64,000 nucleotides of DNA from an uncultured Elusimicrobia bacterium (GCA_963702895.1 OY969767.1:2208001-2272000); one strand, 5' to 3'; numbered from the stretch's first letter, positions 20,386 to 46,900 are shown. The notes: generated by a model from the letters alone, not told the origin. Translations and numbers: made by a program.

Positions 20386-20449
20386 AGTTCAAATGAATTT
20401 TGCATGGCTGACTTCAGACTGTAACTTTCGCTCGTTACCCTCAAGTAGC

Positions 20450-30159: not shown

Positions 30160-30698
30160 AGGGATTCCACCATTTGAACGCGGTAATTGGGAATGAGGAT
30201 CGAGGAGGACCGGGAAAGGTCCTTCGTGTCGTCCCAAAACGCGTCGATTTGAAGGGAGACGGACACAACCGCCGGATCCATCGAATTCCCTGTGAAGATC
30301 AGTGCCGTGACGTTTTTCGCAAGCACCTGGGGAGCTTGGATAAAGTTATTCCCGTAGACCGTGTGCGTCACCGGATCCAGATAAACGGAATAAGCCGTTG
30401 TGCCGTTCGGCAGTGGCGTTTGCAGCTCAAAATTGACCTTCGAATTGGGCACGGTGGACCCCGCGGGCGTCGAGATGACCAGGGTCTCCGCTCTGCCTTT
30501 GCGGATCATCTGCTGGATGCGCTCAAGGCCGACCCGGCTGTCCTGGTTGACCATTTGACGGACCGCCATGCGCTTAAAAAACGTCACATTGCTGAACAGG
30601 ATCTTCGCCACCACCGCGAGGATAGCGGTCGCCATGGCCGCCACGATCAGCGTTTCCACAAGCGTGAAGCCTCGATCCGCTGGAAGGATCCGCCTCAT
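30156..30698 (-). CDS. Prepilin-type protein (PilW-like minor pilin)
   Basis: RG|FTLVETLIV class III signal; ATGA overlap. Confidence 0.85.
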   Translation of the reverse strand: MRRILPADRGFTLVETLIVAAMATAILAVVAKILFSNVTFFKRMAVRQMVNQDSRVGLERIQQMIRKGRAETLVISTPAGSTVPNSKVNFELQTPLPNGTTAYSVYLDPVTHTVYGNNFIQAPQVLAKNVTALIFTGNSMDPAVVSVSLQIDAFWDDTKDLSRSSSILIPNYRVQMVESL

Positions 30699-31225
30699 CG
30701 GAACGCCATGCTTTCCATGTTCACTTGGTAGAGGTGGCCGCGACTGGACCATGTGACATTGATATGGATTTTTTTCAGCCCCTTATCGGCTCCTCTTTCC
30801 CCCATGGTCCCGTTGGAGCAAGTGGACTGCCAGGCCGCTCCCACCCGTTCGACGAGGTGAATGCATTCATGTCTGGTGTAGACGATAGTGGCTTCCTGAA
30901 AGAAGGCGTTCGTGTAGCGGGCGTGCGTCAGGTCTTCCCGGCTGCAGTCGCACCCCCCCATGGTTGGAAAGAGCGCGATGCCGGAAATGGGAAAATTGGA
31001 GTCGACTCCGGTCTCCCGGGGTGTGGTGTCCAAGAGCGCATAAGGTTGCGCTTTGAGGTCCTGCATCCTGGCCGCCGCAAAACTCATCGCCAAGGACCGG
31101 CGGCGGCTGTTGGTGAGCGCTTCCGAGGCTTTGGGCAGCGTGAGCGAGAGTATCGCGACCGAGCCGGCCACCAGCACCGAGACCATCAGCAGCTCAATCA
31201 TGGTGGTTCCTGTCTGGCTCATCAT
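30695..31225 (-). CDS. Prepilin-type protein (PilV-like minor pilin)
   Basis: TG|TTMIELLMV; C-terminal KKIHINVTW; ATGA overlap with the Cys-rich gene. Confidence 0.8.
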   Translation of the reverse strand: MMSQTGTTMIELLMVSVLVAGSVAILSLTLPKASEALTNSRRRSLAMSFAAARMQDLKAQPYALLDTTPRETGVDSNFPISGIALFPTMGGCDCSREDLTHARYTNAFFQEATIVYTRHECIHLVERVGAAWQSTCSNGTMGERGADKGLKKIHINVTWSSRGHLYQVNMESMAFR

Positions 31226-32109
31226 GGGCAATTTTCCGGGGGCACGTCCGACTGGGGCTCGATCGTCGCGCCGGACTCGACATCCTTACTTCCCGTCGCC
31301 GGCGCGCGCACATACGTCCTTTGCCCGTCAGCGCCGACCACAGACTTCCAGCAGGTCAGGTAGTATCTCCCATGGGTGACCTCGAGGTCAAGACTTCCGT
31401 TTGGCCCCACCACGCCCGAGATAATCTTCGGCCGCGCCACCGCCGAAGCGCTGATCTGGGGAGGCATCGCCGCCCCGGCCCATGTAATCGTACTCAGCAT
31501 CACAAAGCTCCCCGAGGGGGCCCGCACCTGCACCCTCGACGTCGCCCCCCGTAACGTAAACGTGTAGCTGCTCAAGGGGACCGCTTCCAAAGAAGCCGGT
31601 GAGGCCGTCTGCTTCCGGTCAGTGACCACATTCAAGGAGAAGGAGGCGCCCTCAAGCGTGGGCCCAAAGTTGAACCAGCCCGTCGGGTCGGTGTTCTGCA
31701 CCATGTACGGGCGCCCATCCGAGGTGCGAAGCTCCACAGGAACACCCTTGAGCTCCAGGACGGTGGGCCAGACCTCGTCCGCAAGGACCCGGCCGCAAAC
31801 CCCTCCTGCCGCGCAAGCGCAGACCGGCGGCGGAGGAAAGGTGCAGTTCCCATCGCAAGCCCATCCGCCGCTGCCACACATAGGGACCGCCCCGCAGGCG
31901 CCACCTATAGGTCTTGTCATATGAAAAGCGCAGACGCCGGAACTGCACAGACCGCTCGAGCACTGGTTACCGCAATCGCAGGTCGCGCAAGGAGCGCGCC
32001 CTGAGCTGGTGCAGACGAAGCCGCAACAAGAGACACTGCAACAGTCGCCGTTCACGGCACAGGGGTCTCCATCGGGGGCACAACAAACCTGGGCCCCGGG
32101 ACAGCTCCC
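31156..32109. repeat. Direct repeat of about 950 bp, copy 1 (copy 2 at 38170-39123)
   Basis: Offset 7014 bp; only a handful of substitutions seen by eye. Confidence 0.92.
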
Positions 32110-33054
32110 TCCGCAACCATCATCGCAGGTGCTTCCAATGCATGTCGAGTCTCTGCAGGAGCAATCGGGGCCCTTGATCCCGGCACAGTTCCCTCCGCAA
32201 CCATCATCGCAGGTGCTTCCAATGCATGTCGAGTCTCTGCAGGAGCAATCAGGGGTACAAGCACTGCAATCTTTGATCCCAGCGCAGGTCCCTCCGCAAC
32301 CATCATCGCAGGTGCTTCCAATGCATGTCGAGTCTCTGCAGGAGCAATCGGGGCCCTTGATCCCGGCACAGTTCCCTCCGCAACCATCATCGCAGGTGCT
32401 TCCAATGCATGTCGAGTCTCTGCAGGAGCAATCAGGGGTACAAGCACTGCAATCTTTGATCCCAGCGCAAGTACCTCCGCAACCATCATCGCAGGTGCTT
32501 CCAATGCATGTCGAGTCTCTGCAGGAGCAATCATAGGTGCCTGGCTTGGAGCATGTGCCGTCGCACTCGATCTTCCCGCCCGGGCATCCGCAATCAGCTT
32601 TCCAGTTAGCGTGGCAAGTGCAATCACAGGTTCCGTCACAGAGAATAGAAGGGTTGCTATTGAAGCAGCCCGGCGCAATCCAGCCGGGGGTCGAGGAGGT
32701 ACACGGTAGCGCCTCTTCCACCACGCAGGCGCAGTAGCACGAACCGACTGCCACTTCGCAGCGGGGCGAGCTTGACGGGCAATCATCGTCTCCGTCGCAA
32801 ATTACTAAGGCGGGGTTGCAGCATGAACTCCCGCAGTCGGTGCATTCGCCCACACCGCTCAACATGTCACAAAACTGACATGTCTCATTTGTCTCGCATT
32901 CCCCATCCGCTTCGCTGCACGAAAAGCTCACGGGGCCGCAGGCCGCGGAGCTGACGGTCCCAGGCAGGAAAACAAGCGCCGCCAGCGCCAGAACCAGGGA
33001 AAGCGGGAGGGAGGCAAGCACGCTCGCTATGAAATGATCGATTCTTTTTCTCAT
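31222..33054 (-). CDS. Secreted Cys-rich repeat protein A
   Basis: Signal peptide; five DCSCRDSTCIGSTCDDGCGGxC repeats; C-terminal ~295 aa shared with 38236..40299. Confidence 0.85.
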   Translation of the reverse strand: MRKRIDHFIASVLASLPLSLVLALAALVFLPGTVSSAACGPVSFSCSEADGECETNETCQFCDMLSGVGECTDCGSSCCNPALVICDGDDDCPSSSPRCEVAVGSCYCACVVEEALPCTSSTPGWIAPGCFNSNPSILCDGTCDCTCHANWKADCGCPGGKIECDGTCSKPGTYDCSCRDSTCIGSTCDDGCGGTCAGIKDCSACTPDCSCRDSTCIGSTCDDGCGGNCAGIKGPDCSCRDSTCIGSTCDDGCGGTCAGIKDCSACTPDCSCRDSTCIGSTCDDGCGGNCAGIKGPDCSCRDSTCIGSTCDDGCGGSCPGAQVCCAPDGDPCAVNGDCCSVSCCGFVCTSSGRAPCATCDCGNQCSSGLCSSGVCAFHMTRPIGGACGAVPMCGSGGWACDGNCTFPPPPVCACAAGGVCGRVLADEVWPTVLELKGVPVELRTSDGRPYMVQNTDPTGWFNFGPTLEGASFSLNVVTDRKQTASPASLEAVPLSSYTFTLRGATSRVQVRAPSGSFVMLSTITWAGAAMPPQISASAVARPKIISGVVGPNGSLDLEVTHGRYYLTCWKSVVGADGQRTYVRAPATGSKDVESGATIEPQSDVPPENCP

Positions 33055-33055
33055 C

Positions 33056-33745
33056 TCACTTGTCCGCGCCGCGCGATTTTCCAGGCGCAAGCGCCCCGGC
33101 CCATTCCGGGTCAATCCACACCTTCTCCGATTGGCGCGCTTTGCTCACCGCGCGGGTCCACCGCCCCTGGGAAATCCGTCGGTAAAGATCCTCCCGTTTC
33201 GATTCATACGGGGGCGACTTGGCGCTCAGGACCATTCCACGGTTGCCTTTCCTGGCAGCTTTGGCCGGCGTTTCGGGGTATTGCGACCGGTAAAGGGCTA
33301 GAACCTCCTCCTCCCTGACGGGCTCCTCCGCCTCCAGGCGCTCGCGCAGCAGGCCCACCAGCGTCACGCGGCGCGCCACGGCCAGCGGCGCATAAGACGT
33401 TGCTTCACGGTCAAGCCCGCGCCTCTCGGCGAGGACGATCAGGGATTGCTGATTGATAAGCGTCTCAAGAAGCCGCCGCTTGCCGTCCGGTCCTGCCAGC
33501 TGCGCCGGCGGATTGCGCTGGGTGAAGGTTTTGTAAGCTTCGTCCAAATCGGAGAGTCTGATGCTGCGGTGCCCCACGCGCGCCAGAACCGGCTGATGGA
33601 CTTCATACCACCAGATCCTGGTCTCGGTCGCCAGAGCCCGCAGGAGCTGCGCGGCGTCGTGACGATCGACCTGGGACGCCCGGCATCCTCCGCCCGCAAG
33701 CAAGAGGAGTGCCGCCAAATACGGACAGATTTGGTTGAAGTTCAT
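33056..33745 (-). CDS. Lipoprotein, SurA/PrsA N-terminal-like foldase
   Basis: LLLLAGGGC lipobox-like motif; VLARVG..I..SDL...LLETLI.Q..L...AERRGLD pattern. Confidence 0.6.
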   Translation of the reverse strand: MNFNQICPYLAALLLLAGGGCRASQVDRHDAAQLLRALATETRIWWYEVHQPVLARVGHRSIRLSDLDEAYKTFTQRNPPAQLAGPDGKRRLLETLINQQSLIVLAERRGLDREATSYAPLAVARRVTLVGLLRERLEAEEPVREEEVLALYRSQYPETPAKAARKGNRGMVLSAKSPPYESKREDLYRRISQGRWTRAVSKARQSEKVWIDPEWAGALAPGKSRGADK

Positions 33746-33994
33746 CGGAGCTTCCTATTTATATCATAAGACTGTTACGCTGCTGTTAACGAATTCTCAA
33801 CGATTTGTAACATTTTCGATAAGGCTAGATGAGCCACCAGAGGGAGTCCATAACGGGCCCAAGGACTCTGGGCTGTTATCGGTTTTGGGTGGGAAATGAA
33901 GGGTGTGAGTAGTTGAGCCGCCGCGTAATATCAATGCAATCGTGAAGCAGTAGGGTCTCTAAATCCACCCGATGGGTGGAAAAGGAGGCCCGCC

Positions 33995-35122
33995 ATGACA
34001 CCCGAATGTCCGCGCTGTGGCAGCAGCCACACACACCGTCACGATTTTCGGACGTACCGGAAGATCAGTTTGTCAGGAGTGGAATCGAAAGGATACCAAC
34101 GATGGTTCTGCGTCGCGTGCAACAAGCCATTTATTCCAGTCGAGCAAAAGCGCGACTCGATGACGTCCTACGACCAGGAGGTCAAAGAACAATCAACGAT
34201 TCTCTATATCGATACCGGAGGCTCCTACCGGGCGGTGATGCGGCAACTGCATCAATGGGGACTGCCGCATGTGCAGACCTACCAGGTCTGGCTGTGGATT
34301 CAAGACATGGGGCACCGCTGCGCCGATCCTTTTACCGTGAGCCAACGGCTGGATCCGAAATGGTCCGGCTGGCTGCAGGTCGATGGCGACCGGATTCCGG
34401 TGGAAGGGATGGATGTCTCCATTCTGGCGGCCTTCGATGCCAACACACGGGACGTTCCGGGCGTGATTCTGGGGCGCGAAACGGAGGTCAATTATCGGGA
34501 ATTATTCGGGCAACTCAAGGAGCTGAACTATCCGCTCAAGGGGCTGACTTCCGACGGAGACAGCGCCATCCTTCTCGCCTACAAGAGCGTCTATCCGAAA
34601 GGCATCCATCAGCGTTGCACGGTTCATTTTCAGCGCAACTTAGACGCGTTGCTCGAGCCTCGCTTCGCGACCTACCCGCAGTTGCCCACCGAATACGAAC
34701 GCTTTCAAAAAGCCTATCACCAGTTTGTCAGCGCGGCGCACTGGTACCAGGCCAAGGAGTGGGTGCGGTTCTTTCTGCACTATCCTTCGTTCCAAAGGCT
34801 GATGTTCAAGCCGGCACGGGATTTGTTTCTTCGTACGCTCCCACAAATCATTCCGGCGTTCTTTCATCCCGGCATGCCGCGAACCAACAACTTGATCGAA
34901 AACCTCTTCCGCTTTATGGACCGGCGCTTAACGCCCATGGACCGCTTTCATGCGCGCGAGGCCGCCTGGGCGATCGTCAAGCTGCTCGTCTTATTCTATC
35001 GATTTCATCAATTCGACAACCCGTCCAAAGCGTATCGGCACATCAAAGGCAAGTCGCCGCTTCAACTGGCCGGTGTCGACACCAGCAAGCTGTTCTGGCT
35101 GGACATGGGCACAAAAGGATGA
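33995..35122 (+). CDS. DDE transposase with N-terminal zinc ribbon (IS1/IS6/IS256-like; family uncertain)
   Basis: CPRC...QRWFCVAC; VDGD, TSDG, QRCTVH, TNNLIE motifs; RBS aaggagg. Confidence 0.85.
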   Translation: MTPECPRCGSSHTHRHDFRTYRKISLSGVESKGYQRWFCVACNKPFIPVEQKRDSMTSYDQEVKEQSTILYIDTGGSYRAVMRQLHQWGLPHVQTYQVWLWIQDMGHRCADPFTVSQRLDPKWSGWLQVDGDRIPVEGMDVSILAAFDANTRDVPGVILGRETEVNYRELFGQLKELNYPLKGLTSDGDSAILLAYKSVYPKGIHQRCTVHFQRNLDALLEPRFATYPQLPTEYERFQKAYHQFVSAAHWYQAKEWVRFFLHYPSFQRLMFKPARDLFLRTLPQIIPAFFHPGMPRTNNLIENLFRFMDRRLTPMDRFHAREAAWAIVKLLVLFYRFHQFDNPSKAYRHIKGKSPLQLAGVDTSKLFWLDMGTKG

Positions 35123-35137
35123 TTTTTCCACCCAAAG

Positions 35138-36522
35138 GAGTTACCATCAAAAGTGCTGGAAATAGGTTCTGAGGCAAGGAAGGATTTGCCTTAGGAATAG
35201 ATAACGGCGTACCCTTTCGTTGAACCAAACAAACCTGTCCGTTCAAGCGGACAATAAACGAAAAGGAGACGCCGTTATGAAGACCATTGTAAACGTGAAA
35301 GGCTGCGAACACAAAGAGAGCATGCTGGATTATCTGGCCCGAGAGGGAGCGCGCAAAATGCTGGTGGAAGCCCTGGAGGAAGAAGTGACGATGTATCTGG
35401 AGCGGCGGCGCTATGAGCGGGCGAAGAGCCTGGAGAAAGGCTATCGCAACGGAACCCGGGAGCGGAAGGTGACAGTTTTGGGAGCAGGTTTAAAGCTCTC
35501 GGTGCCGCAAGTCGACGGGGGCGAGTTTGAGTCGAGCATCTTGCGTCCGTACCAGCGGCGAACCGAGGGTGTCGAGGAGTTATTCCGGCGGCTGTACCTG
35601 GAGGGGCTCTCGAGCCGGGACTTTGAGCCGGCGATGCGAGCACTGATCGGGGATGGAGCCACCTTATCAGCCAGCACGATCCTGCGTTTATCGGCGAAGT
35701 TTCAATCGGACCTGGCCACCTTCAGCCGCCGGGACTTATCCGAAACGCGTTACGCCTATGTCTGGGCGGACGGCGTGTACTTGAAGGCCGGGCTGGAGAA
35801 AGAGAATACGGCGCTTTTAGTGTTGGTTGGCGTGAATGCCGATGGGAAGAAAGAGCTGATTGCTCTGATGGAAGGCTACCGGGAGAGCCGGGATTCCTGG
35901 AAGGAAATCTGGCGAGGGGTGGCGGAGCGTGGAATGCCCGCTCCGCTCTTGGTTATCGGCGATGGGATGGGTGGGCTCTGGGAGGCGGTGGCGGAGGTCT
36001 ATCCGACCGCCAAAGATCAACGGTGCTGGAAGCACAAGATGCGCAACGTCGTGGATAAAGTGCCGAAGGCCAAGCAAGAGGAGGTGCTCAACCGTCTGCG
36101 CGTAGCGTATCAGGCGGAGCGTCGAGAAGACGCGGAGAATCACCTGGCCTTGTTAGCCGAGGACCTGGAGATTCGCTACCCGAAGGCGGCGGCTTGTATC
36201 CGGAAGGACCATGACGCCTTGCTGCGCTACTTCGACTTTCCGAAGGAGCACTGGGTGCATTTAAAGACGAGCAATCCGATCGAGTCGGTCTTCGCGGGGG
36301 TCCGATTGCGAACTCGCGTTGTGCGGCGGTTTCAGAAATCTCGCACGGGAGTAGCGTTCGTCTACAAAATCATTGAACGCCTGGCGCAATTCTGGAAGCC
36401 GATTGAGAAGCCGGAATTGGTGATGGGATTATTCGTCGAACGAGAGAAGCTGGAGGTAGCGGCCTAAGAGACTTTCGACCAAAGGGGCGCCGATCGATTT
36501 CCATCACATTTGACTAAAGCTC
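35138..36522 (+). mobile_element. IS256-family element, copy 1
   Basis: TIRs gagttaccatcaaaagtgctggaaat / gagctttagtcaaatgtgatggaaat (reverse complement); 8-bp TSD acccaaag at 35130-35137 and 36523-36530. Confidence 0.92.
35277..36467 (+). CDS. IS256-family transposase
   Basis: GYRNG, YLEGLSSRD, WADGVY, IGDG, QRCWKH, TSNPIES motifs; RBS aaaggag before ATG 35277. Confidence 0.93.
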   Translation: MKTIVNVKGCEHKESMLDYLAREGARKMLVEALEEEVTMYLERRRYERAKSLEKGYRNGTRERKVTVLGAGLKLSVPQVDGGEFESSILRPYQRRTEGVEELFRRLYLEGLSSRDFEPAMRALIGDGATLSASTILRLSAKFQSDLATFSRRDLSETRYAYVWADGVYLKAGLEKENTALLVLVGVNADGKKELIALMEGYRESRDSWKEIWRGVAERGMPAPLLVIGDGMGGLWEAVAEVYPTAKDQRCWKHKMRNVVDKVPKAKQEEVLNRLRVAYQAERREDAENHLALLAEDLEIRYPKAAACIRKDHDALLRYFDFPKEHWVHLKTSNPIESVFAGVRLRTRVVRRFQKSRTGVAFVYKIIERLAQFWKPIEKPELVMGLFVEREKLEVAA

Positions 36523-36628
36523 ACCCAAAGTCAATAACGGGCCCAAGGACTCCATAGGCCTATTGGGACGGAATATTTGGACGTTTGTTCTATTCCCTCC
36601 ATCAGGGAAGCTTGCTATCCTGAGCTCT

Positions 36629-37681
36629 GTGAAGAACGGTCCCCGCACCATGCTCCTCGTCCTCATGGCGGCATTTGCAACGAGCGCCTGCAATGACAAG
36701 AACGACTCGGCACAAGAGCCCCCTCCTGGCACTCCGAGCAACCCGCAAACCCCCGAGTATAAGATATACTCCTGTACCGTGCCCGGCACGAATGGAAGCC
36801 AGACAATCCAAGTCATTTACGATATCAATCAGCCTCCTATCGACCCGGATTTGATGGTCAAAAGGATAGGTTCATTCCCCTCCAAGCATCTGGCTGGCCT
36901 CAGCACCGTGCACTACTCGACCATCATTGATGAGGTGGCGATGAATGTCTATCCCGGCCTGAACTCAGCGCAGATGGACGAGTGGCAAGTGATCGCAGCC
37001 GGCAAGGAAAGCCCGAAGGATGAGTTCCGAGCCTTTTACGCCAAATGGTTCACGAGCAAGCCGGACGCGCTGCTCAGCCAATTCTTATCAGCTTTAAGGT
37101 CCGGAGCCAGCCAATTCGCTTCGGAATACCTCTATATGGCAGGGCTATTTGCTGATCCCCTCAAGCAAATGATTATCGCTTACGCCGGTTTGTTTAGCGA
37201 CGGCACTCCTACCTTTACGCGCACGAATTATCTGTACTATAGCTTCACGGGTAACATCTTCAAGCTGGCAGGTATAAGTTTCAGGATGCAGATTGTCTCT
37301 GGAAGACTCAGCATTGTGGACATCGACGGCGCTCCCGTCGTGCCGCTGGCTGTGCCAAACATGTTCATCGAACAAGTGCTTCTGGCGCCGGTGAGTGCCT
37401 CGTCTGTCAGCAGCACGCCTCCTTCCGCGCCCGGCGGAGCGTCGCTGGCCCCAGACCGCCAGGAAGCAGCGAGTACGGCGATCGTCTCACCAACAGCGGC
37501 GCGTTCCGTCTACGTCAGCCCGAGAAGACCGAACGAGTACCGCAGCACTCTCGACACGGGCGCCCGCCAGGAGATCCTCCGCGAGATCGACAACTTGACA
37601 TCCGATCCTTCCTACATCCTCGATCACGCTCCCGGCACCATTCCCCACGGGTTCTCCATCGACTCCCGCCAAGCGAAATAG
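36629..37681 (+). CDS. Lipoprotein A of unknown function (paralog of 42833..43828)
   Basis: Lipobox ATSAC; collinear similarity to lipoprotein B with an identical last 22 aa. Start inferred at GTG 36629. Confidence 0.75.
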   Translation: MKNGPRTMLLVLMAAFATSACNDKNDSAQEPPPGTPSNPQTPEYKIYSCTVPGTNGSQTIQVIYDINQPPIDPDLMVKRIGSFPSKHLAGLSTVHYSTIIDEVAMNVYPGLNSAQMDEWQVIAAGKESPKDEFRAFYAKWFTSKPDALLSQFLSALRSGASQFASEYLYMAGLFADPLKQMIIAYAGLFSDGTPTFTRTNYLYYSFTGNIFKLAGISFRMQIVSGRLSIVDIDGAPVVPLAVPNMFIEQVLLAPVSASSVSSTPPSAPGGASLAPDRQEAASTAIVSPTAARSVYVSPRRPNEYRSTLDTGARQEILREIDNLTSDPSYILDHAPGTIPHGFSIDSRQAK

Positions 37682-37813
37682 CGCCAAAGAACGATACAGC
37701 AACGACGAGGGGACGTTCCATCACAAACGTCACAAACTCTAAAGCGCAGGTGCCAGCACCGGGAGCCTAGGGAGTTTGTGACGTTTGTGATGGAACGTCC
37801 CCAAGTAGTTGAG
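37612..37813. repeat. Direct repeat of about 200 bp, copy 1 (copy 2 at 43759-43960)
   Basis: Offset 6147 bp; covers the lipoprotein 3' end, the REP hairpin and the last codons of the giant gene. Confidence 0.92.
37709..37802. repeat. REP-like hairpin with 31-bp perfect arms
   Basis: ggggacgttccatcacaaacgtcacaaactc ... gagtttgtgacgtttgtgatggaacgtcccc. Confidence 0.9.
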
Positions 37814-38055
37814 TCATTTGTGACCGCCCCAGAGCTCGTCGAACTCATCTGGTTGAGGGTTGAGCCGCCCATTCAGGTGTTCGTGGAGGAGAGGAGCGCC
37901 CCGGCGCCGCCAGAGACGCCCCGCGTCGGGGCGGCAGGGCAAGAAGCGGGACAATCGATGAATCGCTCCATTTGATCTTGGGCAAGCTGGCAGCCTCCCA
38001 AAAGAAGGGCACTCCCCAAAAACGTGCCGAGAAATGGAAATGAAAAATGCTTCAT
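37804..38055 (-). pseudogene. Deleted relic of the giant fibre gene's 3' end, fused to a lipoprotein-like signal
   Basis: AAPTRG..GAGALLSSTNT*(TGA for TGG) then GSTLNQMSSTSSGAVTND, versus giant-gene AAPTWGAGATGLLSSTNTW and GSTINQKGSTGSGSVEID. Confidence 0.7.
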
Positions 38056-38169
38056 TGATTCGTTTGGATATAGCAAACGGAGGCTGGGTCGACAAGAAAA
38101 CGAACCTCAGCCAAGACAAACGATAAGGGGATGTTCTTCAGGAACGAAAGGACGCGGTTTAGGGACAGA

Positions 38170-38239
38170 CGACCGAGCCGGCCACCAGCACCGAGACCAT
38201 CAGCAGCTCAATCATGGTGGTTCCTGTCTGGCTCATCAT
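38170..38239 (-). pseudogene. 5' fragment of the PilV-like gene (prepilin leader only)
   Basis: Identical to 31156-31225, then diverges. Confidence 0.8.
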
Positions 38240-40299
38240 GGGCAATTTTCCGGGGGCACGTCCGACTGGGGCTCGATCGTCGCGCCGGACTCGACATCCT
38301 TACTTCCCGTCGCCGGCGCGCGCACATACGTCCTTTGCCCGTCAGCGCCGACCACAGACTTCCAGCAGGTCAGGTAGTATCTCCCATGGGTGACCTCGAG
38401 GTCAAGACTTCCGTTTGGCCCCACCACGCCCGAGATAATCTTCGGCCGCGCCACCGCCGAAGCGCTGATCTGGGGAGGCATCGCCGCCCCGGCCCATGTA
38501 ATCGTACTCAGCATCACAAAGCTCCCCGAGGGGGCCCGCACCTGCACCCTCGACGTCGCCCCCCGTAACGTAAACGTGTAGCTGCTCAAGGGGACCGCTT
38601 CCAAAGAAGCCGGTGAGGCCGTCTGCTTCCGGTCAGTGACCACATTCAAGGAGAAGGAGGCGCCCTCAAGCGTGGGCCCAAAGTTGAACCAGCCCGTCGG
38701 GTCGGTGTTCTGCACCATGTACGGGCGCCCATCCGAGGTGCGAAGCTCCACAGGAACACCCTTGAGCTCCAGGACGGTGGGCCAGACCTCGTCCGCAAGG
38801 ACCCGGCCGCAAACCCCTCCTGCCGCGCAAGCGCAGACCGGCGGCGGAGGAAAGGTGCAGTTCCCATCGCAAGCCCATCCGCCGCTGCCACACATAGGGA
38901 CCCCCCCGCAGGCGCCACCTATAGGTCTTGTCATATGAAAAGCGCAGACGCCGGAACTGCACAGACCGCTCGAGCACTGGTTACCGCAGACGCAGGTCGC
39001 GCAAGGAGCGCGCCCTGAGCTGGTGCAGACAAAGCCGCAACAAGAGACACTGCAACAGTCGCCGTTCACGGCACAGGGGTCTCCATCGGGGGCGCAACAA
39101 ACCTGGGCCCCGGGACAGCTCCCGCCGCATCCATCAGGGCAGGTGCTTCCAACGCAGGTCGTGGCGGCGCAGGAGCAATCGGGGCCCTTGGTCCCAGCGC
39201 AATTACCTCCGCAACCATCAGGGCAGGTGTTTCCAACGCATGTCGTGGCGGCGCAGGCGCAATTGGGGCCCTTGGTCCCAGCGCAATTACCTCCGCAACC
39301 ATCAGGGCAGGTGCTTCCAACGCAGGTCGTGGCGGCGCAGGAGCAATCGGCGGCGCAACAAAACTGGGTCCCGGCACAGTTCCCTCCGCAACCATCAGGG
39401 CAGGTGCTTCCAACGCAGGTCGTGGCGGCGCAGGAGCAATCGGGGCCCTTGGTCCCAGCGCAATTACCTCCGCAACCATCAGGGCAGGTGCTTCCAACGC
39501 ATGTCGTGGCGGCGCAGGCGCAATTGGGGGCGCAACAACCCAGGGTCCCGGCACAGTTCCCGCCGCAACCATCAGGGCAGGTGCTTCCAACACATGTCGT
39601 GGCGGCGCAGGAGCAATCGGGAGCGCAACAACCCAGGGTCCCGGCACAGTTCCCTCCGCAACCATCACTGCAGGTGCTTCCAACGCAGGTCGTGGCGGCG
39701 CAGGAGCAATCGGGAGCGCAACAACCCAGGGTCCCGGCACAGTTCCCGCCGCAACCATCACTGCAGGTGCTTCCAACGCAGGTCGTGGCGGCGCAGGAGC
39801 AATCGGGGGCGCAACAACCCAGGGTCCCGGCACAGCTCCCGCCGCATCCATCAGCGCAGGTGCTTCCAACGCATGTCGTGGCGGCGCAGGAGCAATCGGG
39901 GCCCTTGGTCCCAGCGCAATTACCTCCGCATCCATCGGGGCAGGTGCTTCCAGCGCATGTCGTGGCGGCGCAGGAGCAATCAGGGGCGCAGGGGGGTGTG
40001 CAGGTATCGGTCATGCAATCCTCAACACAACAACCGTGGGCGGCGCAATCTGGCTCAGCCAGCTTGGCTTCGCAATAGGCAACACCGGACCAACCCGCCG
40101 GACACGAGCAATCTAACAAACCGATGGGGTGGCAAGCACCGGCATCCCAATAGTCAGATCGGCATATATCATCAAGAGCCGAGCTTGTGACAACCTCAAT
40201 GCAAACGACAGCAAAGGACACGAGCGCCAGCCGCGCGGCGGCCGCCAGGCGTTTTCGGAGCAACAGCAAGCATCCCCTCTTTGTTAATTCAGGAGTCAT
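38236..40299 (-). CDS. Secreted Cys-rich repeat protein B
   Basis: Signal peptide; about ten (D/N)CxCAATTCVGSTCxDGCGGxCAGT repeats; C-terminus shared with protein A. Confidence 0.85.
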   Translation of the reverse strand: MTPELTKRGCLLLLRKRLAAAARLALVSFAVVCIEVVTSSALDDICRSDYWDAGACHPIGLLDCSCPAGWSGVAYCEAKLAEPDCAAHGCCVEDCMTDTCTPPCAPDCSCAATTCAGSTCPDGCGGNCAGTKGPDCSCAATTCVGSTCADGCGGSCAGTLGCCAPDCSCAATTCVGSTCSDGCGGNCAGTLGCCAPDCSCAATTCVGSTCSDGCGGNCAGTLGCCAPDCSCAATTCVGSTCPDGCGGNCAGTLGCCAPNCACAATTCVGSTCPDGCGGNCAGTKGPDCSCAATTCVGSTCPDGCGGNCAGTQFCCAADCSCAATTCVGSTCPDGCGGNCAGTKGPNCACAATTCVGNTCPDGCGGNCAGTKGPDCSCAATTCVGSTCPDGCGGSCPGAQVCCAPDGDPCAVNGDCCSVSCCGFVCTSSGRAPCATCVCGNQCSSGLCSSGVCAFHMTRPIGGACGGVPMCGSGGWACDGNCTFPPPPVCACAAGGVCGRVLADEVWPTVLELKGVPVELRTSDGRPYMVQNTDPTGWFNFGPTLEGASFSLNVVTDRKQTASPASLEAVPLSSYTFTLRGATSRVQVRAPSGSFVMLSTITWAGAAMPPQISASAVARPKIISGVVGPNGSLDLEVTHGRYYLTCWKSVVGADGQRTYVRAPATGSKDVESGATIEPQSDVPPENCP

Positions 40300-40426
40300 T
40301 CTTTGAGCGGTACCCTTTAGAGGCTATCGCATCGCATGAACGAAATCAAGACCCATTCTTCCAGGGTGAATTCCGTCCTTAAGCAAAACACGCGTTATGG
40401 CTGCCGAAAAATGCTATTTATTACGT

Positions 40427-41296
40427 ATGAAGTTGATCTCATTTGCCCTGGTGCTTCTACCCGTCGGCTTGGTCTGGCTGGCGGGGTGTCAGAGGCGCGA
40501 TCTTCCGGCTTGGTCGGAACTTTTTCAGGACCAATACCTCCGCCAAGAGGAAGGCCGTACTGTGGCCCGCGTGGATGGACTGCCCATTACCGAGGCGGAG
40601 ATCCTGTCGTGGGCGGAGAGCGCGCCCCATGTCTTTGAGGCTGCCCTGGCCAGCCGTGCAGGGCGCCAGCAATTTATGGACTCCCTCATCCGACAAAGAA
40701 TCTGGGTACAGTGGGCCCGGCGCAGCGGTGCTGACGATCTGCACTACCGCTTGGGCATTCGCCGACACCGCTATACGATGCTGGCGCGAGCACTTCGCGA
40801 AAAACTCGCCAAAAATGCTGTTGCAGGAAACGCCGCTCAAGCAGGCGATGGAACAGAGGACACCGCACCAGAGCTGACCGAAGTCGAGGCGAGCCTGCTC
40901 CATGTGCGGAGTCTCCAGGATGCAAAACGCTTGCAGAGCCTTCTTCAGCAGGGCATGCGCCCTGAGTCGGTGAAGCACCTCTCCGTCAACGGAAAACCGC
41001 TTCCGACACCTGCCGCGGCGCCCTTTGATCTCGACGCAGCCCTTAAAAAATTGAAGGATGGCCAGGCTTCCTCGCCCATCAAGCTTGGCAAGGGTTATGC
41101 CATCCTTCGGCGCAACAACACGCGCCGATTGCCCGCCCCGATGGCTCTAAGGGAACCAACACGCCAGATCAAAGAAGAAGATTTCGGAGCACAATTTAAC
41201 CAAGTCAAAGCAGACATGAAAATCGAAATTGACGAATCTGTTTTGGATGCCGTTCTCCCCTTAAAAAAACCTGCCGCTTCGACGAAAGAACCTTAA
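40427..41296 (+). CDS. Lipoprotein, PrsA/PpiC-like foldase (degenerate parvulin)
   Basis: Lipobox LAGC; TVARVDG..ITEAE; VEASLLHV...LKDGQASSPIK...GYAIL. Confidence 0.7.
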   Translation: MKLISFALVLLPVGLVWLAGCQRRDLPAWSELFQDQYLRQEEGRTVARVDGLPITEAEILSWAESAPHVFEAALASRAGRQQFMDSLIRQRIWVQWARRSGADDLHYRLGIRRHRYTMLARALREKLAKNAVAGNAAQAGDGTEDTAPELTEVEASLLHVRSLQDAKRLQSLLQQGMRPESVKHLSVNGKPLPTPAAAPFDLDAALKKLKDGQASSPIKLGKGYAILRRNNTRRLPAPMALREPTRQIKEEDFGAQFNQVKADMKIEIDESVLDAVLPLKKPAASTKEP

Positions 41297-41339
41297 GGCA
41301 AAACCTTTTCAGCCTGATACTTTGGGGGCCAGGAAAGAA

Positions 41340-42727
41340 GAGTTCTTGTCAAATGTACTGGAAATAGGGCAACGCCCCTTTCGTTGAATGTCTCTTAGGC
41401 CGCGACCTCCAGCTTCTCTCTTTCCACAAATAGTACTTCAACCAATTCCGGCTTTGCGATCGGCTTCCAGAACTGCGCTAAACGCTCAATGACCTTGTAG
41501 ACGAATGCCACGCCTGTTCGGGATTTCTGGAACCGGCGCACGACTCGCGTCCGCAACCGCACTCCCGCGAAGACCGACTCAATCGGATTGCTCGTCTTCA
41601 AATGGACCCAGTGCTCCTTCGGAAAGTCGAAGTACCTCAGCAACGTGTCATGATCCTTGCGCACACAAGCCGCAGCCTTCGGATAGCGAATTTCAAGATC
41701 CTCAGCCAACAAGGCCAACTGGTTCTCCGCGTCTTCGCGGCGCTCCGCCTGATAGGCCACCCGCAGGCGATTGAGGACTTCATCCTGCTTAGCCTTCGGC
41801 ACTTTATCCACGACGTTGCGCATCTTGTGCTTCCAACACCGTTGATCCTTCGCCGAGGGATACACCTCTGCCACCGCCTCCCAGAGCCCTCCGATCCCGT
41901 CGCCGATGACCAACAGCGGAGCAGGCATACCGCGCTCCGCGACCCCTCTCCAGATTTCCTTCCAGGAATCCCGGCTCTCCCGGTAGCCTTCCATCAGCGC
42001 GATCAGTTCCTTCTGGCCTTTCGCGTTGACGCCCACCAGAACCAGAAGCGCTGTGTTCTCTTTTTCCAGCCCCGCTTTTAAATACACGCCGTCTGCCCAG
42101 ACATAGGCGTAACGCGTCTCCGATAGGTCCCGGCGACTGAACGTAGCCAGGTCCGACTGAAACTTCGCCGATAGACGCAGGATCGTGCTGGCTGATAAGG
42201 TGGCTCCATCCCCGATCAGTGCTCGCAACGCCGGCTCAAAGTCCCGACTCGAGAGTCCCTCCAGGTACAGCCGCCGGAATAACTCCTCGACCCCTTCCGT
42301 CCGCCGCTGGTAGGGCCGCAAGATGCTCGACTCAAACTCGCCTCCGTCCACCTGGGGCACCGATAGCTTCAGCCCCGCCCCCAACACCGTCACCTTCCGC
42401 TCCCGCGTTCCGTTCCGATAGCCTTTCTCCAGATTCTTCGCCCGTTCATAGCGCCGACGCTCTAAATACATCGTCACTTCTTCTTCCAGGGCCTCCACCA
42501 GCATCTTGCGCGCTCCTTCACGGGCCAGATAATCCACCATGCTCTCGCCTTTGTGCTGAGTCCCTTTCTCGTTTACAATGGTTTCCATAACGGCGTCTCC
42601 TTTTCGTTTATTGTCCGCTCGAACGGACAGGTTTGTGTGTTTCAACGAAAGGGTACGCCGTTTCTATTTCCTAAGGCAAATCCTTCCTTGCCTTAAAACC
42701 TATTTCCAGCACTTTTGATGGTAACTC
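41340..42727 (-). mobile_element. IS256-family element, copy 2 (diverged isoform)
   Basis: TIRs gagttcttgtcaaatgtactggaaatagg / gagttaccatcaaaagtgctggaaatagg (reverse complement); 8-bp TSD ggaaagaa at 41332-41339 and 42728-42735. Confidence 0.92.
41395..42588 (-). CDS. IS256-family transposase
   Basis: Close paralog of 35277..36467 with many synonymous differences. Confidence 0.93.
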   Translation of the reverse strand: METIVNEKGTQHKGESMVDYLAREGARKMLVEALEEEVTMYLERRRYERAKNLEKGYRNGTRERKVTVLGAGLKLSVPQVDGGEFESSILRPYQRRTEGVEELFRRLYLEGLSSRDFEPALRALIGDGATLSASTILRLSAKFQSDLATFSRRDLSETRYAYVWADGVYLKAGLEKENTALLVLVGVNAKGQKELIALMEGYRESRDSWKEIWRGVAERGMPAPLLVIGDGIGGLWEAVAEVYPSAKDQRCWKHKMRNVVDKVPKAKQDEVLNRLRVAYQAERREDAENQLALLAEDLEIRYPKAAACVRKDHDTLLRYFDFPKEHWVHLKTSNPIESVFAGVRLRTRVVRRFQKSRTGVAFVYKVIERLAQFWKPIAKPELVEVLFVEREKLEVAA

Positions 42728-42832
42728 GGAAAGAAGCTTTGCAAGACCCAGCTGGATCATGGGTCTTTTAGCGTAGTTTTTTAGACAAAAGTTCGATTCA
42801 CTTCATCCAGCTCATTGATATAGAGTTAAGCC

Positions 42833-43828
42833 ATGCTTACACTCAAACACCGCACGGTCTGGAGCATCACCTTGGTGCTCGGCCATGCGTTGATGACGGG
42901 CTGCAAAGAGGAGACATCGTCAACGACGCCTCCTCCTCCACCCTTTGTCGACTCCTCGTTCACCTATGTCGTTCCGGGCACCTCCCATCAGATCAATATC
43001 ATCGACGATGTGGCCAGCGCCACTCCCTCCAAAGAGGACATGACGCAGGCGCTTGATGTCATTCCGGCAGCTCACTTGACCAGCCTGACAACGCTGCATT
43101 TCAGCAGCTACGCCAACGACATTGCGACCAGCCTCTATGACAGGTTGACGCCGGCGCAGCGCGACGAGTGGGCGAGCTTTCAAGTGGCCTCCGATGCCAA
43201 GAAGGAGTTCTCCAACTACTATTACCGGTGGCTGAACACCAACGGCGGGGCGCTCATGAAGGAAGATGTATTAAGTGCGCTTCCGGCCAATAACCCCAAG
43301 TCGGCTTCCAAGTGGCTTTTCATGGCAGCCCTCTTTGCCGACCAGAGCAGCAGCCAGATCATTATCTTTACGGGCCTGACCGCATTGCCCTCGAAACGGG
43401 CCTATTTCCCCTATTCCATGTCAGGGAATACCCTTACGATTGTTGGCCACAAATTTCTGCTGGCCGTGGTCGACGGAAAATTGTCGGTCGTTGGACTCGA
43501 CGGTACGCCCGTGACGCCTGCGTCTGTTCCAAGCATCTTTGTGGAACGCGTGATCCTGAATCCCCGCCCGGCCATCCTATCCAACACGCTCAGCTCCCAG
43601 ACCTCCGAGAGGCCGCTTGACGCGGGGTTATCTTCACAAGGTGCAGGGGCTCTCAACTATATCAGCCCTCAGAGTCCCGATGTCTATCGACCAGTGACCG
43701 ACTCCGCCGCCCAGGACGAACTTGCAAAAGAAATCCAGCGGCTGCGGGCCGATCCCCGCTACATCCTCGATCACGCTCCCGGCACCATTCCCCACGGGTT
43801 CTCCATCGACTCCCGCCAAGCGAAATAG
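42833..43828 (+). CDS. Lipoprotein B of unknown function
   Basis: Lipobox LMTGC followed by a Pro-rich tether; paralog of lipoprotein A. Confidence 0.8.
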   Translation: MLTLKHRTVWSITLVLGHALMTGCKEETSSTTPPPPPFVDSSFTYVVPGTSHQINIIDDVASATPSKEDMTQALDVIPAAHLTSLTTLHFSSYANDIATSLYDRLTPAQRDEWASFQVASDAKKEFSNYYYRWLNTNGGALMKEDVLSALPANNPKSASKWLFMAALFADQSSSQIIIFTGLTALPSKRAYFPYSMSGNTLTIVGHKFLLAVVDGKLSVVGLDGTPVTPASVPSIFVERVILNPRPAILSNTLSSQTSERPLDAGLSSQGAGALNYISPQSPDVYRPVTDSAAQDELAKEIQRLRADPRYILDHAPGTIPHGFSIDSRQAK

Positions 43829-43855
43829 CGCCAAAGAACGATACAGCAACGACGA

Positions 43856-43949
43856 GGGGACGTTCCATCACAAACGTCACAAACTCTAAAGCGCAGGTGC
43901 CAGCACCGGGAGCCTAGGGAGTTTGTGACGTTTGTGATGGAACGTCCCC
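43856..43949. repeat. REP-like hairpin between convergent genes
   Basis: Identical to 37709-37802; abuts the giant gene's stop codon. Confidence 0.9.
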
Positions 43950-46900
43950 TAGTAGTTGAGGGTGTAGGCGAGATTGTCGTAGGTCGAATCGACGTCGTTG
44001 AAGATGAAAGCCATGTAATCCGTCTTGTTGCCCGCGCTGGAGAGGACAGGATAGGCCCCACCCGGGAAGCGGATGGTCCCCGGCCAATTGATGTTGCGGC
44101 CGCCCGTCGCGTCTTGCTTCACCATGAGCACATACTTGCGGCCCGAAATTCCATTGGCGAAGGTGAGCGTGGGGTTGCCGGTGAGCACCACATGCTGCGT
44201 GTTGCCGTTGGACCAGTCGATTTCAACAGAACCCGAGCCGGTCGAACCCTTCTGATTAATGGTCGAGCCAAATTGGCCGTTCGTGATGGCAAGCGACGCG
44301 TTGTTCACCACCACCATCGAGCTAAACGTGACGCTCGACACATAGGTTTGCCCCGCCGTCCAGGTATTCGTGGAACTGAGGAGGCCCGTGGCGCCTGCCC
44401 CCCACGTCGGCGCCGCACCGGGGCCGTTCGATTGAAGCACCTGGCTGGCCGTCCCTGCGCTGCCGCTCAAAACGAGTGCGCCGTTTAAGGCCAGCTGCGT
44501 CTGGACCGTGCCGCTGGACACATAGAACGTCGATCCCGTCTGGAGACTCTGCGTGAGCTGGATGTAGCTCGTCGCGCCGCCCGGTAGGTCCCCCGCCACA
44601 AGCCCGGCACTCACGAGCTTTTTGCTGCCGTCAGTCTTGACGAATTGGCTGGCCGAAAGGTCATTGGCGGTCACACTGCCCGCCACCACGCCGTAGGTGA
44701 CGCCCACGCCGCCCGCACTGGTCACGGTGAGACTGGAGGTCAGGGTCTTGACGCCTGAAATCGTTTGGTTGGTGTCGGTGTAGACGACGTTCGCCGGCAG
44801 GTCGCCCGAGGCGATGGTGGCGCTCACGAGCTTCTTGTTCCCATCGGTCTTGACGAACTGGCTGGCGCTCAAGTCGTTGGCCGTGACGCTGCCGGCCACC
44901 ACGCCGTAGGTCACGCTCACGCCGCTTGGCGAAGCGATGGTCTGGCCGCCGGTCCAGGTGTTGGTGGAGCTCAAGTACGCCACGGTCGACGGCAGCACCG
45001 TGCTGGCAATGCCCGTCACAATGTTGGCGCCGGTGAGATTCGTCAGTCCCGTTCCAAGGCCCGTAAAGCTGCCCGCTGCCACACCGTAGGTGACGCCCAC
45101 GCCGCCCGCACTGGTCACGGTGAGACTGGAGGTCAGGGTCTTGACGCCTGAAATCGTTTGGTTGGTGTCGGTGTAGACGACGTTCGCCGGCAGGTCGCCT
45201 GAAGCGATGGTGGCGCTCACGAGTTTTTTGCTGCTGTCGGTTTTCACAAACTGGCTGGCCGTTAGGGGGTTGAGTTGCAGGCTGCCGGCGTTGACGATGA
45301 GGTTGGTGCTCACCGTCACATCGTTCTGGAACGTCTGCCAGGCCGTCCAGGTATTGGTGGAATTGAGCAAGGCGCTTGCGCTGGCCGGGCTCACCCACGT
45401 GGGCGCGGCACCAGGACCCTGGCTCTGCAGCACCTGCCCGCTCGTCCCCGAATTGTTGCTCGCAAGCACGGCTCCGGAGACGACCAAGTTGGACGAGATC
45501 GTGACCGCCTGCCCGGAGGCTCCGAAGAGCGCGGCGTTCGCTACGGTGATGCTGGAGCCATAGGTCTGCGGCGCGCTCCAAAGCTGGTTTTTGTCCACAT
45601 AGGCCACGGTCGACGGCAGCACCGTGCTGGCAATGCCCGTCACAATGTTGGCGCCGGTGAGATTCGTCAGTCCCGTTCCAAGACCCGTAAAGCTTCCCGC
45701 TGCCACACCGTAGGTGACGCCCACGCCGCCCGCACTGGTCACGGTGAGACTGGAGGTCAGGGTCTTGACGCCTGAAATCGTTTGGTTGGTGTCGGTGTAG
45801 ACGACGTTCGCCGGCAGGTCGCCTGAAGCGATGGTGGCGCTCACGAGTTTTTTGCTGCTGTCGGTTTTCACAAACTGGCTGGCCGTTAGGGGGTTGAGTT
45901 GCAGGCTGCCGGCGTTCACGATCAAGTTCGTGCTCACCGTCACATCGTTCTGGAACGTCTGCCAGGCCGTCCAGGTGTTGGTGGAGTTGAGCAAGGCGCT
46001 TGCGCTGGCCGGGCTCACCCACGTGGGCGCGGCACCAGGACCCTGGCTCTGCAGCACCTGCCCGCTCGTCCCCGAATTGTTGCTCGCAAGCACGGCTCCG
46101 GAGACGACCAAGTTGGACGAGATCGTGACCGCCTGCCCAGAAGCACCGAGTAATGCGGCATTGGTCACCGTGACGCTCGACCCATACGTCTGCGGCGCGC
46201 TCCAAAGCTGGTTTTTGTCCACATAGGCCACAGTCGACGGCAGCACCGTGCTGGCAATGCCCGTCACAATGTTGGCGCCGGTGAGATTCGTCAGTCCCGT
46301 TCCAAGACCCGTAAAGCTTCCCGCTGCCACGCCGTAGGTGACGCCCACGCCGCCCGCACTGGTCACGGTGAGACTGGAGGTCAGGGTCTTGACGCCTGAA
46401 ATCGTTTGGTTGGTGTCGGTGTAGACGACGTTCGCCGGCAGGTCGCCTGAAGCGATGGTGGCGCTCACGAGTTTTTTGCTGCTGTCGGTTTTCACAAACT
46501 GGCTGGCCGTTAGGGGGTTGAGTTGCAGGCTGCCGGCGTTGACGATGAGGTTGGTGCTCACCGTCACATCGTTCTGGAACGTCTGCCAGGCCGTCCAGGT
46601 ATTGGTGGAATTGAGCAAGGCGCTTGCGCTGGCCGGGCTCACCCACGTGGGCGCGGCACCAGGACCCTGGCTCTGCAGCACCTGCCCGCTCGTCCCCGAA
46701 TTGTTGCTCGCAAGCACGGCTCCGGAGACGACCAAGTTGGACGAGATCGTGACCGCCTGCCCGGAGGCTCCGAAGAGCGCGGCGTTCGCTACGGTGATGC
46801 TGGAGCCATAGGTCTGCGGCGCGCTCCAAAGCTGGTTTTTGTCCACATAGGCCACGGTCGACGGCAGCACCGTGCTGGCAATGCCCGTCACAATGTTGGC

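Follow-up and report, generated by a model that had tools for sequence, protein, structure and literature searches.

The PilY1/PilC proteins of type IV pili, a type to which Neisseria pilC1 and pilC2 belong, are represented in Pfam by Neisseria_PilC, the family of the PilY1/PilC beta-propeller. A second Neisseria system is pilE/pilS, in which many truncated and promoterless silent pilS copies donate sequence non-reciprocally to one expression locus. For PilY1, the available part of PMC7541494 describes a layout of a signal peptide, a poorly conserved N-terminus and a conserved C-terminal domain, and reports for Myxococcus xanthus three clusters (cluster_1-3) in which PilY1 occurs with multiple alternative minor-pilin sets in one genome. 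According to a portion of PMC13533445, PilC/PilY1 docks into PilK by its last ~10 residues and thereby completes the beta-sheet of PilK. In an excerpt of PMC4552749, the babA, babB and babC paralogs of Helicobacter pylori are described as forming chimeras by gene conversion. Here we describe a locus of an uncultured Elusimicrobia bacterium in which two tandem units, A and B, at the head of a pilin-like operon each encode a secreted cysteine-rich protein (CysA and CysB). The locus lies in a window of 64,000 nucleotides, which is the whole stretch analysed (bases 2208001-2272000 of the source genome); coordinates refer to the window unless a genome position is given. On balance, we favour the view that the first module of a pilus tip operon was duplicated head to tail long ago, was later made into a mosaic by homologous recombination and was then colonised by insertion sequences (IS). 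The locus looks like the product of ordinary recombination between duplicated adhesin genes, not like a dedicated switching system.

Two pairs of direct repeats bracket the units. The preliminary description had reported near-identical arms at offsets of 7014 and 6147, and both were found again by repeat tools and self-BLAST. The left arm occupies 31156-32100 (copy A) and 38170-39114 (copy B) and comprises 945 bp at 99.47% identity and an offset of 7014. In a base-by-base alignment its first 733 bp (31156-31888) are identical, and differences are scattered from 31889 on. The edge is abrupt, with similarity gone to the left of 31156 and 38170, and at the other end the match runs on into the Cys repeats at lower identity (1367 bp, 92.7%). 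The right arm (37602-37813 in copy A, 43749-43960 in copy B) comprises 212 bp at 98.1% identity and an offset of 6147. Neither arm recurs elsewhere in the genome, apart from the right-arm palindrome, whose family has nine loci. In copy A, the left arm contains the 5′ end of the pilin-like gene and the constant C-terminal region of CysA; copy B includes a pilin-gene stub (38160-38245). The right arm of unit A contains the last 26 codons of the lipoprotein gene lipoA, the palindrome and a 12-nt equivalent of the end of a giant gene in which the stop codon is altered, and that of unit B includes the palindrome at 43847-43958 and the giant-gene stop codon.

Apart from the IS, unit A consists of foldA, CysA, the pilV-like gene, p198 and p613 on the minus strand, with lipoA divergent from them and followed by the palindrome and a junction. 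Unit B has CysB on the minus strand, followed by the 26-codon pilin stub, with foldB and lipoB divergent from CysB; at its distal end, the palindrome is followed by the convergent and intact giant gene. The stub repeats the first 23-25 codons of the pilin-like gene 30695-31231 (minus strand) at 38170-38245 and then ends with VCP and a stop codon. None of the six protein genes of the two units is interrupted, and each encodes a signal peptide or a lipobox. The earlier account of the gene content per unit was essentially right, including the opposite orientation of the foldase-like genes, the distant lipoprotein paralogs and the differing Cys repeats and N-termini. It also correctly stated that unit A alone is joined to the pilin operon, where ATGA stop/start overlaps occur at CysA/pilV, pilV/p198 and p198/p613, and that unit B alone is joined to the intact giant gene.

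The units are separated by a junction of 356 bp (37814-38169) that has no second copy in the genome. On its minus strand it holds a decayed remnant with an in-frame stop that resembles residues 4541-4607 of the giant protein. In a tblastn search of a 421-nt subject, two collinear matches to this protein were obtained, one to residues 4541-4586 (45% identity, E 0.03) and one to residues 4590-4607 (61%, E 0.13). The giant-gene 3′ end that had been assigned to unit A thus holds for the last 12 nt, which lie in the arm, and beyond them is a weak, decayed remnant. A small open reading frame in the junction (37873-38076, minus strand) begins with a lipoprotein-type signal (MKHFSFPFLGTFLGSALLLGGC) and continues into the decayed giant-gene-like remnant; it may have arisen by chance or be what is left of another gene. 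The giant gene itself (43949-58036, minus strand) encodes a repeat protein of 4695 aa, which has a signal peptide, internal repeats of 624 nt that are 97-99% identical and many occurrences of the motif AAPTW...LLSSTNTW. No convincing Pfam family was found for it.

CysA (31222-33114, minus strand) is a secreted protein of 630 aa if translated from a TTG codon, and probably of 610 aa from the ATG at 33054. It contains 82 cysteines (13%) and is built of a unique N-terminus, five Cys repeats and a constant C-terminal region that ends in a twin beta-sandwich. CysB (38236-40299, minus strand) is a complete second protein of this kind, with 687 aa from an ATG start, 106 cysteines (15.4%), an N-terminus unlike that of CysA, ten Cys repeats and the same constant C-terminal region. 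It also has its own upstream region of 97 bp. The last ~290 residues of the two proteins are 99% identical, with two to three residues differing, and the N-termini are unrelated (27% in a forced alignment). The repeat units differ as well: the consensus is CSCRDSTCIGSTCDDGCGG for the five units of CysA vs CSCAATTCVGSTCPDGCGG for the ten units of CysB. Array A (32095-32533) has units of 84/99 nt, including two 183-nt double units that are ~98-99% identical, and array B (39085-39993) has units of 84/93 nt that are 86-88% alike. Both arrays are still in frame. Signal-peptide-like N-termini were recognised by eye in CysA, CysB and their homologs. Neither protein matched a Pfam family at E ≤ 0.01, and no NCBIfam or PADLOC model names them. 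The same Cys repeat unit (CSCAASTCIGSTCSDGCGG...) was observed in genome G003 of the same genus, at L005 985-2256 (plus strand), within a 423-aa protein with a tail that by eye resembles a type IX secretion system (T9SS) sorting tail. The repeat is therefore a module common to different surface-protein classes in the genus.

Two further lipoprotein genes accompany each Cys gene. The foldA gene (33056-33745, minus strand; lipobox LAGGGC) stops 1 nt before the CysA ATG, and its product gives sub-threshold matches to SurA_N_3 (E 0.0027) and an EpsD-type peptidyl-prolyl isomerase (PPIase; E 0.0025). The foldB gene (40397-41296, plus strand; lipobox LAGC) is divergent from CysB; its product matches Rotamase_2 below the cut-off (E 0.0013) and has a distant paralog at genome 2614538-2615386. 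Besides their opposite orientation, foldA and foldB have one marginal match of 56-57 residues in common. The label 'foldase' is weakly suggested by these sub-threshold SurA_N, Rotamase and EpsD matches. The orphan lipoproteins lipoA (36650-37681, plus strand; 343 aa, lipobox ATSAC) and lipoB (42833-43828, plus strand; 331 aa) are 38% identical, and their last 26 codons are identical. Among 5.8 billion proteins, lipoB was the single relative of lipoA, which matched no family; an Atlas search with lipoA reached a best score of 0.78 and gave no lead. From co-variation and position, one may guess that the lipoproteins are helpers for specific Cys-rich parts.

The right arm contains a REP-like (repetitive extragenic palindrome-like) element, which in copy A (37700-37811) has 40-nt arms, a 32-nt spacer and a folding energy of -76.2 kcal/mol (z -11.8). 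Its family (~95-112 bp) is found at nine loci of the genome, including 37700-37811, 43847-43958 and 63082-63174 in the window, where the elements lie between convergent genes. The stop codon of the giant gene is located inside one palindrome arm.

Identity is not uniform across the units: near-identical arms contrast with interiors that differ as much as old alleles do, with saturated synonymous sites. When lipoA and lipoB are aligned by codon, third positions agree at 0.12-0.52 in each of 13 successive windows of 25 columns (325 aligned columns), after which the last two windows reach 0.76 and 1.0. Over their last ~210 codons, the Cys genes do not differ at any codon position. Purifying selection cannot erase synonymous differences, so the common ancestor of the arms must be much younger than that of the interiors. 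The jump in identity is thus not due to selection, and the explanation has to be sought in homologous recombination or gene conversion, as had been suggested before. The strong divergence of the interiors noted in the preliminary description is confirmed at synonymous sites; part of it is IS DNA (4.1 kb) that had been overlooked. Near-identical segments of this kind also occur elsewhere in the genome between neighbouring paralogs with a T9SS tail: a 1996-bp segment is 97.3% identical over a distance of 23.6 kb (window 13879-15874 and genome C1:2198244-2200239), and a 557-bp segment is 97.5% identical over 9.3 kb (genome C1:2196026-2196582 and 2205334-2205890). Outside these segments the paralog pairs differ, which is the same mosaic pattern as in the Cys modules. 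The mosaic therefore looks like a general habit of this genome and not like a special device.

A pilin 5′ stub, giant-gene-like DNA and a unique, decayed joint are the expected remains of a head-to-tail duplication. The ancestral module would have reached from about codon 25 of the pilin-like gene through the 3′ end of the giant gene, and would have contained a SurA-N-like lipoprotein, a secreted Cys-rich protein, an orphan lipoprotein and the palindrome, which possibly acts as a terminator. Its duplication would account for the 26-codon pilin stub and for the giant-gene fragment that is decaying at the junction. The arms could then have been homogenised by gene conversion between the tandem copies, or one interior could have been swapped for a foreign, diverged allele by crossovers in the arms. 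The junction remnant is less decayed than the saturated synonymous sites predict, which leans slightly towards import of an allele, with the remnant being weakly supported itself. In the last step, three elements of the IS256 family would have entered intergenic DNA as simple insertions.

The first of these elements, ISX (33869-36543, plus strand), is IS256-related and encodes a transposase of 375 aa (33995-35122) with a Zn-finger N-terminus. Its 9-bp target duplication (CAAGGACTC) is present at 33860-33868 and 36544-36552. The transposase just reaches the Pfam cut-off (22 vs 21 bits) and matches Zn-finger domain models, which points to a distant relative of IS256. ISX hosts a nested IS256 of type A (35138-36522, plus strand; transposase 35220-36467) with an 8-bp duplication (ACCCAAAG); there are four copies of this type in the genome, and its transposase matches Pfam Transposase_mut with E 8.6e-73 and the NCBIfam IS256 model with 303.7 bits (cut-off 150). 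In unit B, an IS256 of type B (41340-42727, minus strand; transposase 41395-42645, Pfam E 2.1e-73) has the 8-bp duplication TTCTTTCC in IS orientation. It occurs in five genome copies at ≥99.9% identity and is 87% identical to type A. Together, the three IS account for ~4.1 kb of the 12.8-kb feature and explain most of the length difference between the units. Each IS is flanked by its own matching target duplication of 8-9 bp, and all three insertions are intergenic. The intact duplications indicate simple insertions, with no IS-mediated inversion or deletion and no recombination between the elements since then. The 1.38-kb inverted repeat 35138-36522/41340-42727 had also been considered as an invertible segment or as the 'foldase' genes, and was rejected because it consists of the two IS256 copies with their intact target duplications. 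A composite transposon or IS-mediated rearrangement was likewise discarded, since each IS has its own duplication and the IS256 copies are 87% identical and mutually inverted.

In most respects these elements are typical of the IS256 family, with a DDE 'Mutator' transposase, a length of ~1.39 kb, target duplications of 8-9 bp and several identical copies in the genome. The unusual feature is that one site in two ISX copies holds two IS256 subtypes that differ by 13%. A second ISX copy, 99.2% identical, lies at genome 2505561-2506843. In both copies (window 33869-36543 and genome C1:2504126-2506843) an IS256 is nested at the same site with the same duplication (ACCCAAAG / CACCCAAA), and it is of subtype A in the window and of subtype B at the other locus. 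This suggests that the nested IS was replaced by recombination with other copies after the composite of ISX and IS256 had been copied.

The constant domain of the Cys-rich proteins was used as a profile against 1.84 billion representative proteins, which gave 2594 matches at E ≤ 0.001. Many of these cover just a repeated CarboxypepD_reg-like sub-domain of giant proteins. The architecture was counted in the 149 best representative matches of the 2594. A near-full constant domain is present in 61 of these 149, and in 55 of the 61 it lies ≤15 residues from the C-terminus. Twenty-nine of these 55 proteins end in CP, and 34 have at least 150 residues ahead of the domain. These N-terminal parts are Cys-rich (≥8% Cys) in 11 of the 34; others have NHL-like repeats or Pro linkers. 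The homologs from relatives retain the last ~200 residues, ending in ...YYLTCWKP...CP, with N-terminal parts that are wholly different (Pro-rich, Cys-rich or other). The variable-N/constant-C pattern that had been noted for CysA and CysB is thus real and a property of the whole protein family. An AF2 model of the constant domain (pLDDT 89.4) consists of two beta-sandwiches, and its best PDB matches are Gram-positive pilin, CnaB, SpaA, SdrD-B and Bacteroides adhesin stalk domains (E ~1e-5, TM 0.22-0.39); an Atlas search returned the same families. In the family alignment, Cys168 and the terminal Cys209 form an invariant pair. The constant twin beta-sandwich defines an unannotated family with hypervariable N-termini, which has a PilY1/PilC-like layout and no homology to those proteins.

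Within the phylum, 30 of 401 Elusimicrobiota genomes matched at E ≤ 1e-10. Earlier it had been proposed to compare the number of cassettes in relatives; members of the family are found there, and two full copies are confined to the source genome, in which the constant domain and the lipoprotein each occur just twice. Genomes G046 and G158 were considered as further members and rejected, as both proteins lack the C-terminal end of the family. The G046 protein is a pilin-fused relative of the domain. Two such fusions were observed, a 910-aa protein at genome C1:~525300-528030 (minus strand) and the 651-aa protein of G046 (L028 6386-8341, minus strand), which combine a prepilin N-terminus (G|ATLAE and G|FSLIE) with a C-terminal region related to the first ~150 positions of the constant domain. 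In G046 the fused gene is followed by another pilin gene.

The operon that continues from CysA contains three pilin-like genes on the minus strand. The first (30695-31231) encodes a pilV/PilI-like prepilin of 178 aa, whose first 23-25 codons lie within the left arm. It is followed by p198 (30156-30752, probable start 30698), a prepilin-like minor pilin, and by p613 (28396-30237, probable start 30159), a large pilin-like protein in the position of GspK/PilX. The N-termini of the pilV-like protein (TG|TTMIE, with Glu at +5) and of p198 (RG|FTLVE) carry class III signal motifs, and that of p613 (G|QALLIAALL) is hydrophobic and without Glu5. The orthologs of the pilV-like protein and of p198 in G004 pass the Pfam N_methyl cut-off, the former with 23.9 bits (cut-off 21.2). 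A profile made from the p198 alignment matches type IV pilin N-termini in PDB with E values of 8.6e-4 to 0.011; the same type of search with the pilV-like protein gave nothing significant. A homolog of the C-terminal domain of the Cys proteins is located directly upstream of pilin-like genes in all three relatives' loci examined (G001, G004 and G010; 24-37% identity). Orthologs of p613 are present in all three, and a pilV-like gene in two of them, with none found in G010. As to pilus machinery, 11 matches to PilB/GspE-type ATPases exceed the cut-off in the genome, which also encodes four secretins.

Compared with the described systems, the locus resembles PilY1/PilC in that a non-pilin secreted protein with a variable N-terminal and a conserved C-terminal part is encoded with minor pilins, and in that more than one adhesin variant occurs per organism. 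The order of a small pilin, a pilin of ~200 aa and a large pilin without Glu5 in pilV-like/p198/p613 is the same as in PilI-J-K and GspI-J-K. In contrast to PilY1/PilC, CysA and CysB have no beta-propeller by Pfam and carry a twin CarboxypepD_reg/CnaB-like beta-sandwich instead. Lacking the propeller, they are not members of the PilY1 family. The CysA gene also differs in being the first of its operon, and binding of CysA to the pilins would follow from the analogy. In M. xanthus, as far as the cited portion goes, the clusters are separate and complete, whereas here two tandem variants share one pilin set and have identical docking-module DNA. The bab paralogs, according to the excerpt cited, likewise share a homologous C-terminal part and diverge in the part that binds the ligand, and intragenomic homologous recombination between them makes mosaics and alters the variant at the expressed locus. 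Those genes encode outer-membrane proteins at dispersed loci, in contrast to the pilus-operon-linked secreted proteins in direct tandem described here. Moreover, the homogenised tracts here reach neighbouring genes (the pilin 5′ end, the lipoprotein 3′ end and the palindrome), and chimeras are known for bab, whereas this locus is known from one assembled genome. As in pilE/pilS, a variable segment lies between conserved sequence (arms of 99.5% and 98% here), which allows RecA-dependent transfer. Unlike there, two complete genes are present that do not encode the major pilin, and no recombination-initiating element was found. With copies that are neither truncated nor numerous, this is not a cassette system of the pilE/pilS type. 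By analogy, the locus most likely works like a variable tip adhesin of the PilY1/PilC type that has been duplicated in place, and like the bab paralogs.

By the PilY1/PilC analogy, the constant domain would anchor the variable Cys-rich part to the pilus tip complex. With one C-terminal module common to CysA and CysB, the single minor-pilin set could take up either protein, giving two alternative tips. CysA is translationally coupled to the three pilin-like genes and would be produced together with them, and CysB would depend on the 97 bp upstream of its own gene; both the docking on pilins and the expression of CysB are inferred. In a RecA-type crossover between the left arms, 7014 bp would be lost and CysB would come to stand before the intact pilin genes in a B-only locus, a geometry that the preliminary description had already worked out. 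Exchange at the right arms would remove 6147 bp, yielding an A-only locus in which the giant gene is intact. Both outcomes would keep the flanking genes intact. Tentatively, and with clearly less confidence than for the duplication itself, we propose that some Elusimicrobiota have a family of tip adhesins distinct from PilY1, with a signal peptide, a freely exchangeable N-terminal module and a constant twin beta-sandwich ending in Cys-Pro. At this locus, it would form a two-allele array: recombination would maintain identity in the docking module and the pilin 5′ end, which would allow two different adhesins to cap one pilus.

Several observations weigh against these proposals. In a genome-wide scan, the pilV-like protein and p198 of the window itself stay below the Pfam N_methyl cut-off. 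For p613, no GspK/PilX signature was detectable in Pfam and PDB searches or with Pfam on four p613 orthologs, so that its role is assigned by position. The relatives' loci contain neither the foldase nor the lipoprotein genes, which leaves position as the link of these genes to the pilus. The constant domain has a generic stalk fold of the CarboxypepD_reg/CnaB type and not the PilY1 propeller, and a disulfide between Cys168 and Cys209, as the alignment suggests, may tie the C-terminal tail to the domain, which would be a poor fit to strand donation in the manner of PilY1. The giant-gene remnant rests on matches with E 0.03 and 0.13 to a motif that recurs within the giant protein. Finally, the tandem state is taken from a single assembled genome, and its age and any deletion variants are presumptive.

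If the functional reading holds, the family would provide type IV filaments with a route for carrying variable adhesins that does not depend on PilY1, in a phylum with almost no experimental biology. In the literature searched, no paper paired 'Elusimicrobia' with 'PilY1' or 'Elusimicrobiota' with 'minor pilin'. By single arm crossovers, a population could keep and sort its adhesin alleles in a simple manner and with no need for a recombinase. The locus would also be a clean natural case of partial concerted evolution, in which the part that fits the machinery stays identical while the ligand-binding part and the companion lipoproteins have diverged to saturation. If the functional reading fails, what remains is an ordinary duplicated, IS-ridden accessory region. 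The most useful products of this analysis are the unannotated constant-domain family and the clear case of partial concerted evolution, and the alignment of the constant domain can serve as a handle for such adhesins in metagenomes.

The best-surviving alternative, which we nevertheless consider unlikely, is that the locus is a neutral by-product: a decaying duplicate of an accessory locus with one chance conversion tract, in whose dispensable DNA IS have built up and in which CysB has no role. Three IS insertions within 13 kb would fit such a history. ISX lies ~120 bp upstream of foldA, in the sole promoter-bearing space of the CysA operon, and IS256-B parts foldB from lipoB; the pilin stub and the giant-gene remnant are decaying, and the lipoproteins are orphans. 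However, the six protein genes have remained intact with their signal peptides or lipoboxes, both Cys-repeat arrays are in frame and none of the IS has entered a gene. Two separate arms have been homogenised, and not a single tract, which also argues against one chance event.

It is less likely still that the locus is a programmed device for antigenic variation, in which unit B is a stored variant to be swapped into the pilin operon through the arms. The arrangement invites this thought, as the conserved arms bracket exactly the variable part, the pilin genes are coupled to unit A alone, CysB would enter the operon if the left arms crossed over and the protein family is of the variable-N/constant-C type. 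The preliminary description had accordingly suggested cassette stockpiling with an exchangeable adhesin module. As a dedicated system this does not hold up. Just two copies exist in the genome, which is the one genome among 401 Elusimicrobiota with two, and CysB is complete, with a start, a signal-peptide-like N-terminus and an upstream region, and not a promoterless partial cassette. A crossover between direct repeats is an irreversible deletion, which is open to any direct repeat of 0.2-1 kb. The arm ends showed no recombinase, invertase or shared signal, the IS transposases being the closest genes of a recombinase-like kind, and similar near-identical segments link other neighbouring surface-protein paralogs of this genome. 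Switching is thus a possible idea, but an unsupported one.

Public reads gave little coverage of the locus. Of three runs listed, only one contained 0.15 of the sampled words, and it yielded 21 short contigs of low depth; no RNA run was listed. Among eight listed read contigs (167-553 bp, depth 2-4.6) none bridges the units, and the contig covering 31142-31363 extends just 14 nt to the left of the arm start. That two strain alleles of one locus were joined in tandem by the assembler is nonetheless very improbable: the organism is uncultured with metagenome-assembled relatives, arms of 0.2-0.9 kb could mislead an assembler and the contigs from public runs gave no read evidence on the locus, but the link from right to left arm needs the 356-bp junction, which is unique in the genome and resembles an evolved remnant and not a flank, the left arm begins abruptly within a gene with its B side running into unique DNA, different types of IS occur in the two units, each flanked by a target duplication of its own, and the genome is a single closed contig of 2.72 Mb (57% G+C) that is 98% complete and 1.8% contaminated.

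The closest relatives in the genome collection are metagenome-assembled Elusimicrobiota, and a scan of its contigs for relatives of the locus returned four loci, all distant. A scan of metagenome contigs for close strains gave Cys-repeat look-alikes in other organisms only (10 loci). In word-indexed protein searches, the constant domain, the pilV-like protein and lipoA/lipoB matched the window's own proteins only. Rfam gave nothing at the gathering score in 24000-46000, and PADLOC gave no match for the seven proteins scanned. A scan for sigma-70 promoters and terminators found 12 promoter-like sites vs 4.3 expected, five of them in the Cys repeat unit and two being one site in both arms, a result that is not informative for this phylum.

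The neighbourhood in the window is crowded with genes for surface proteins. Large beta-helix/fn3 proteins with a T9SS tail (Por_Secre_tail) are packed at 1131-20014 and 20393-24109, so that components of T9SS type are present in an Elusimicrobiota genome. An S8/M11 protease with a T9SS tail is among the large surface proteins of the window (1131-24109 and 58904-63081), and a gene of the PorV/PorQ family is located at 61582-63081. An IS110-family transposase gene (24335-25378, minus strand), of the RNA-guided type, lies 6 kb from the duplicated module and matches its NCBIfam model with 229 bits (cut-off 140).

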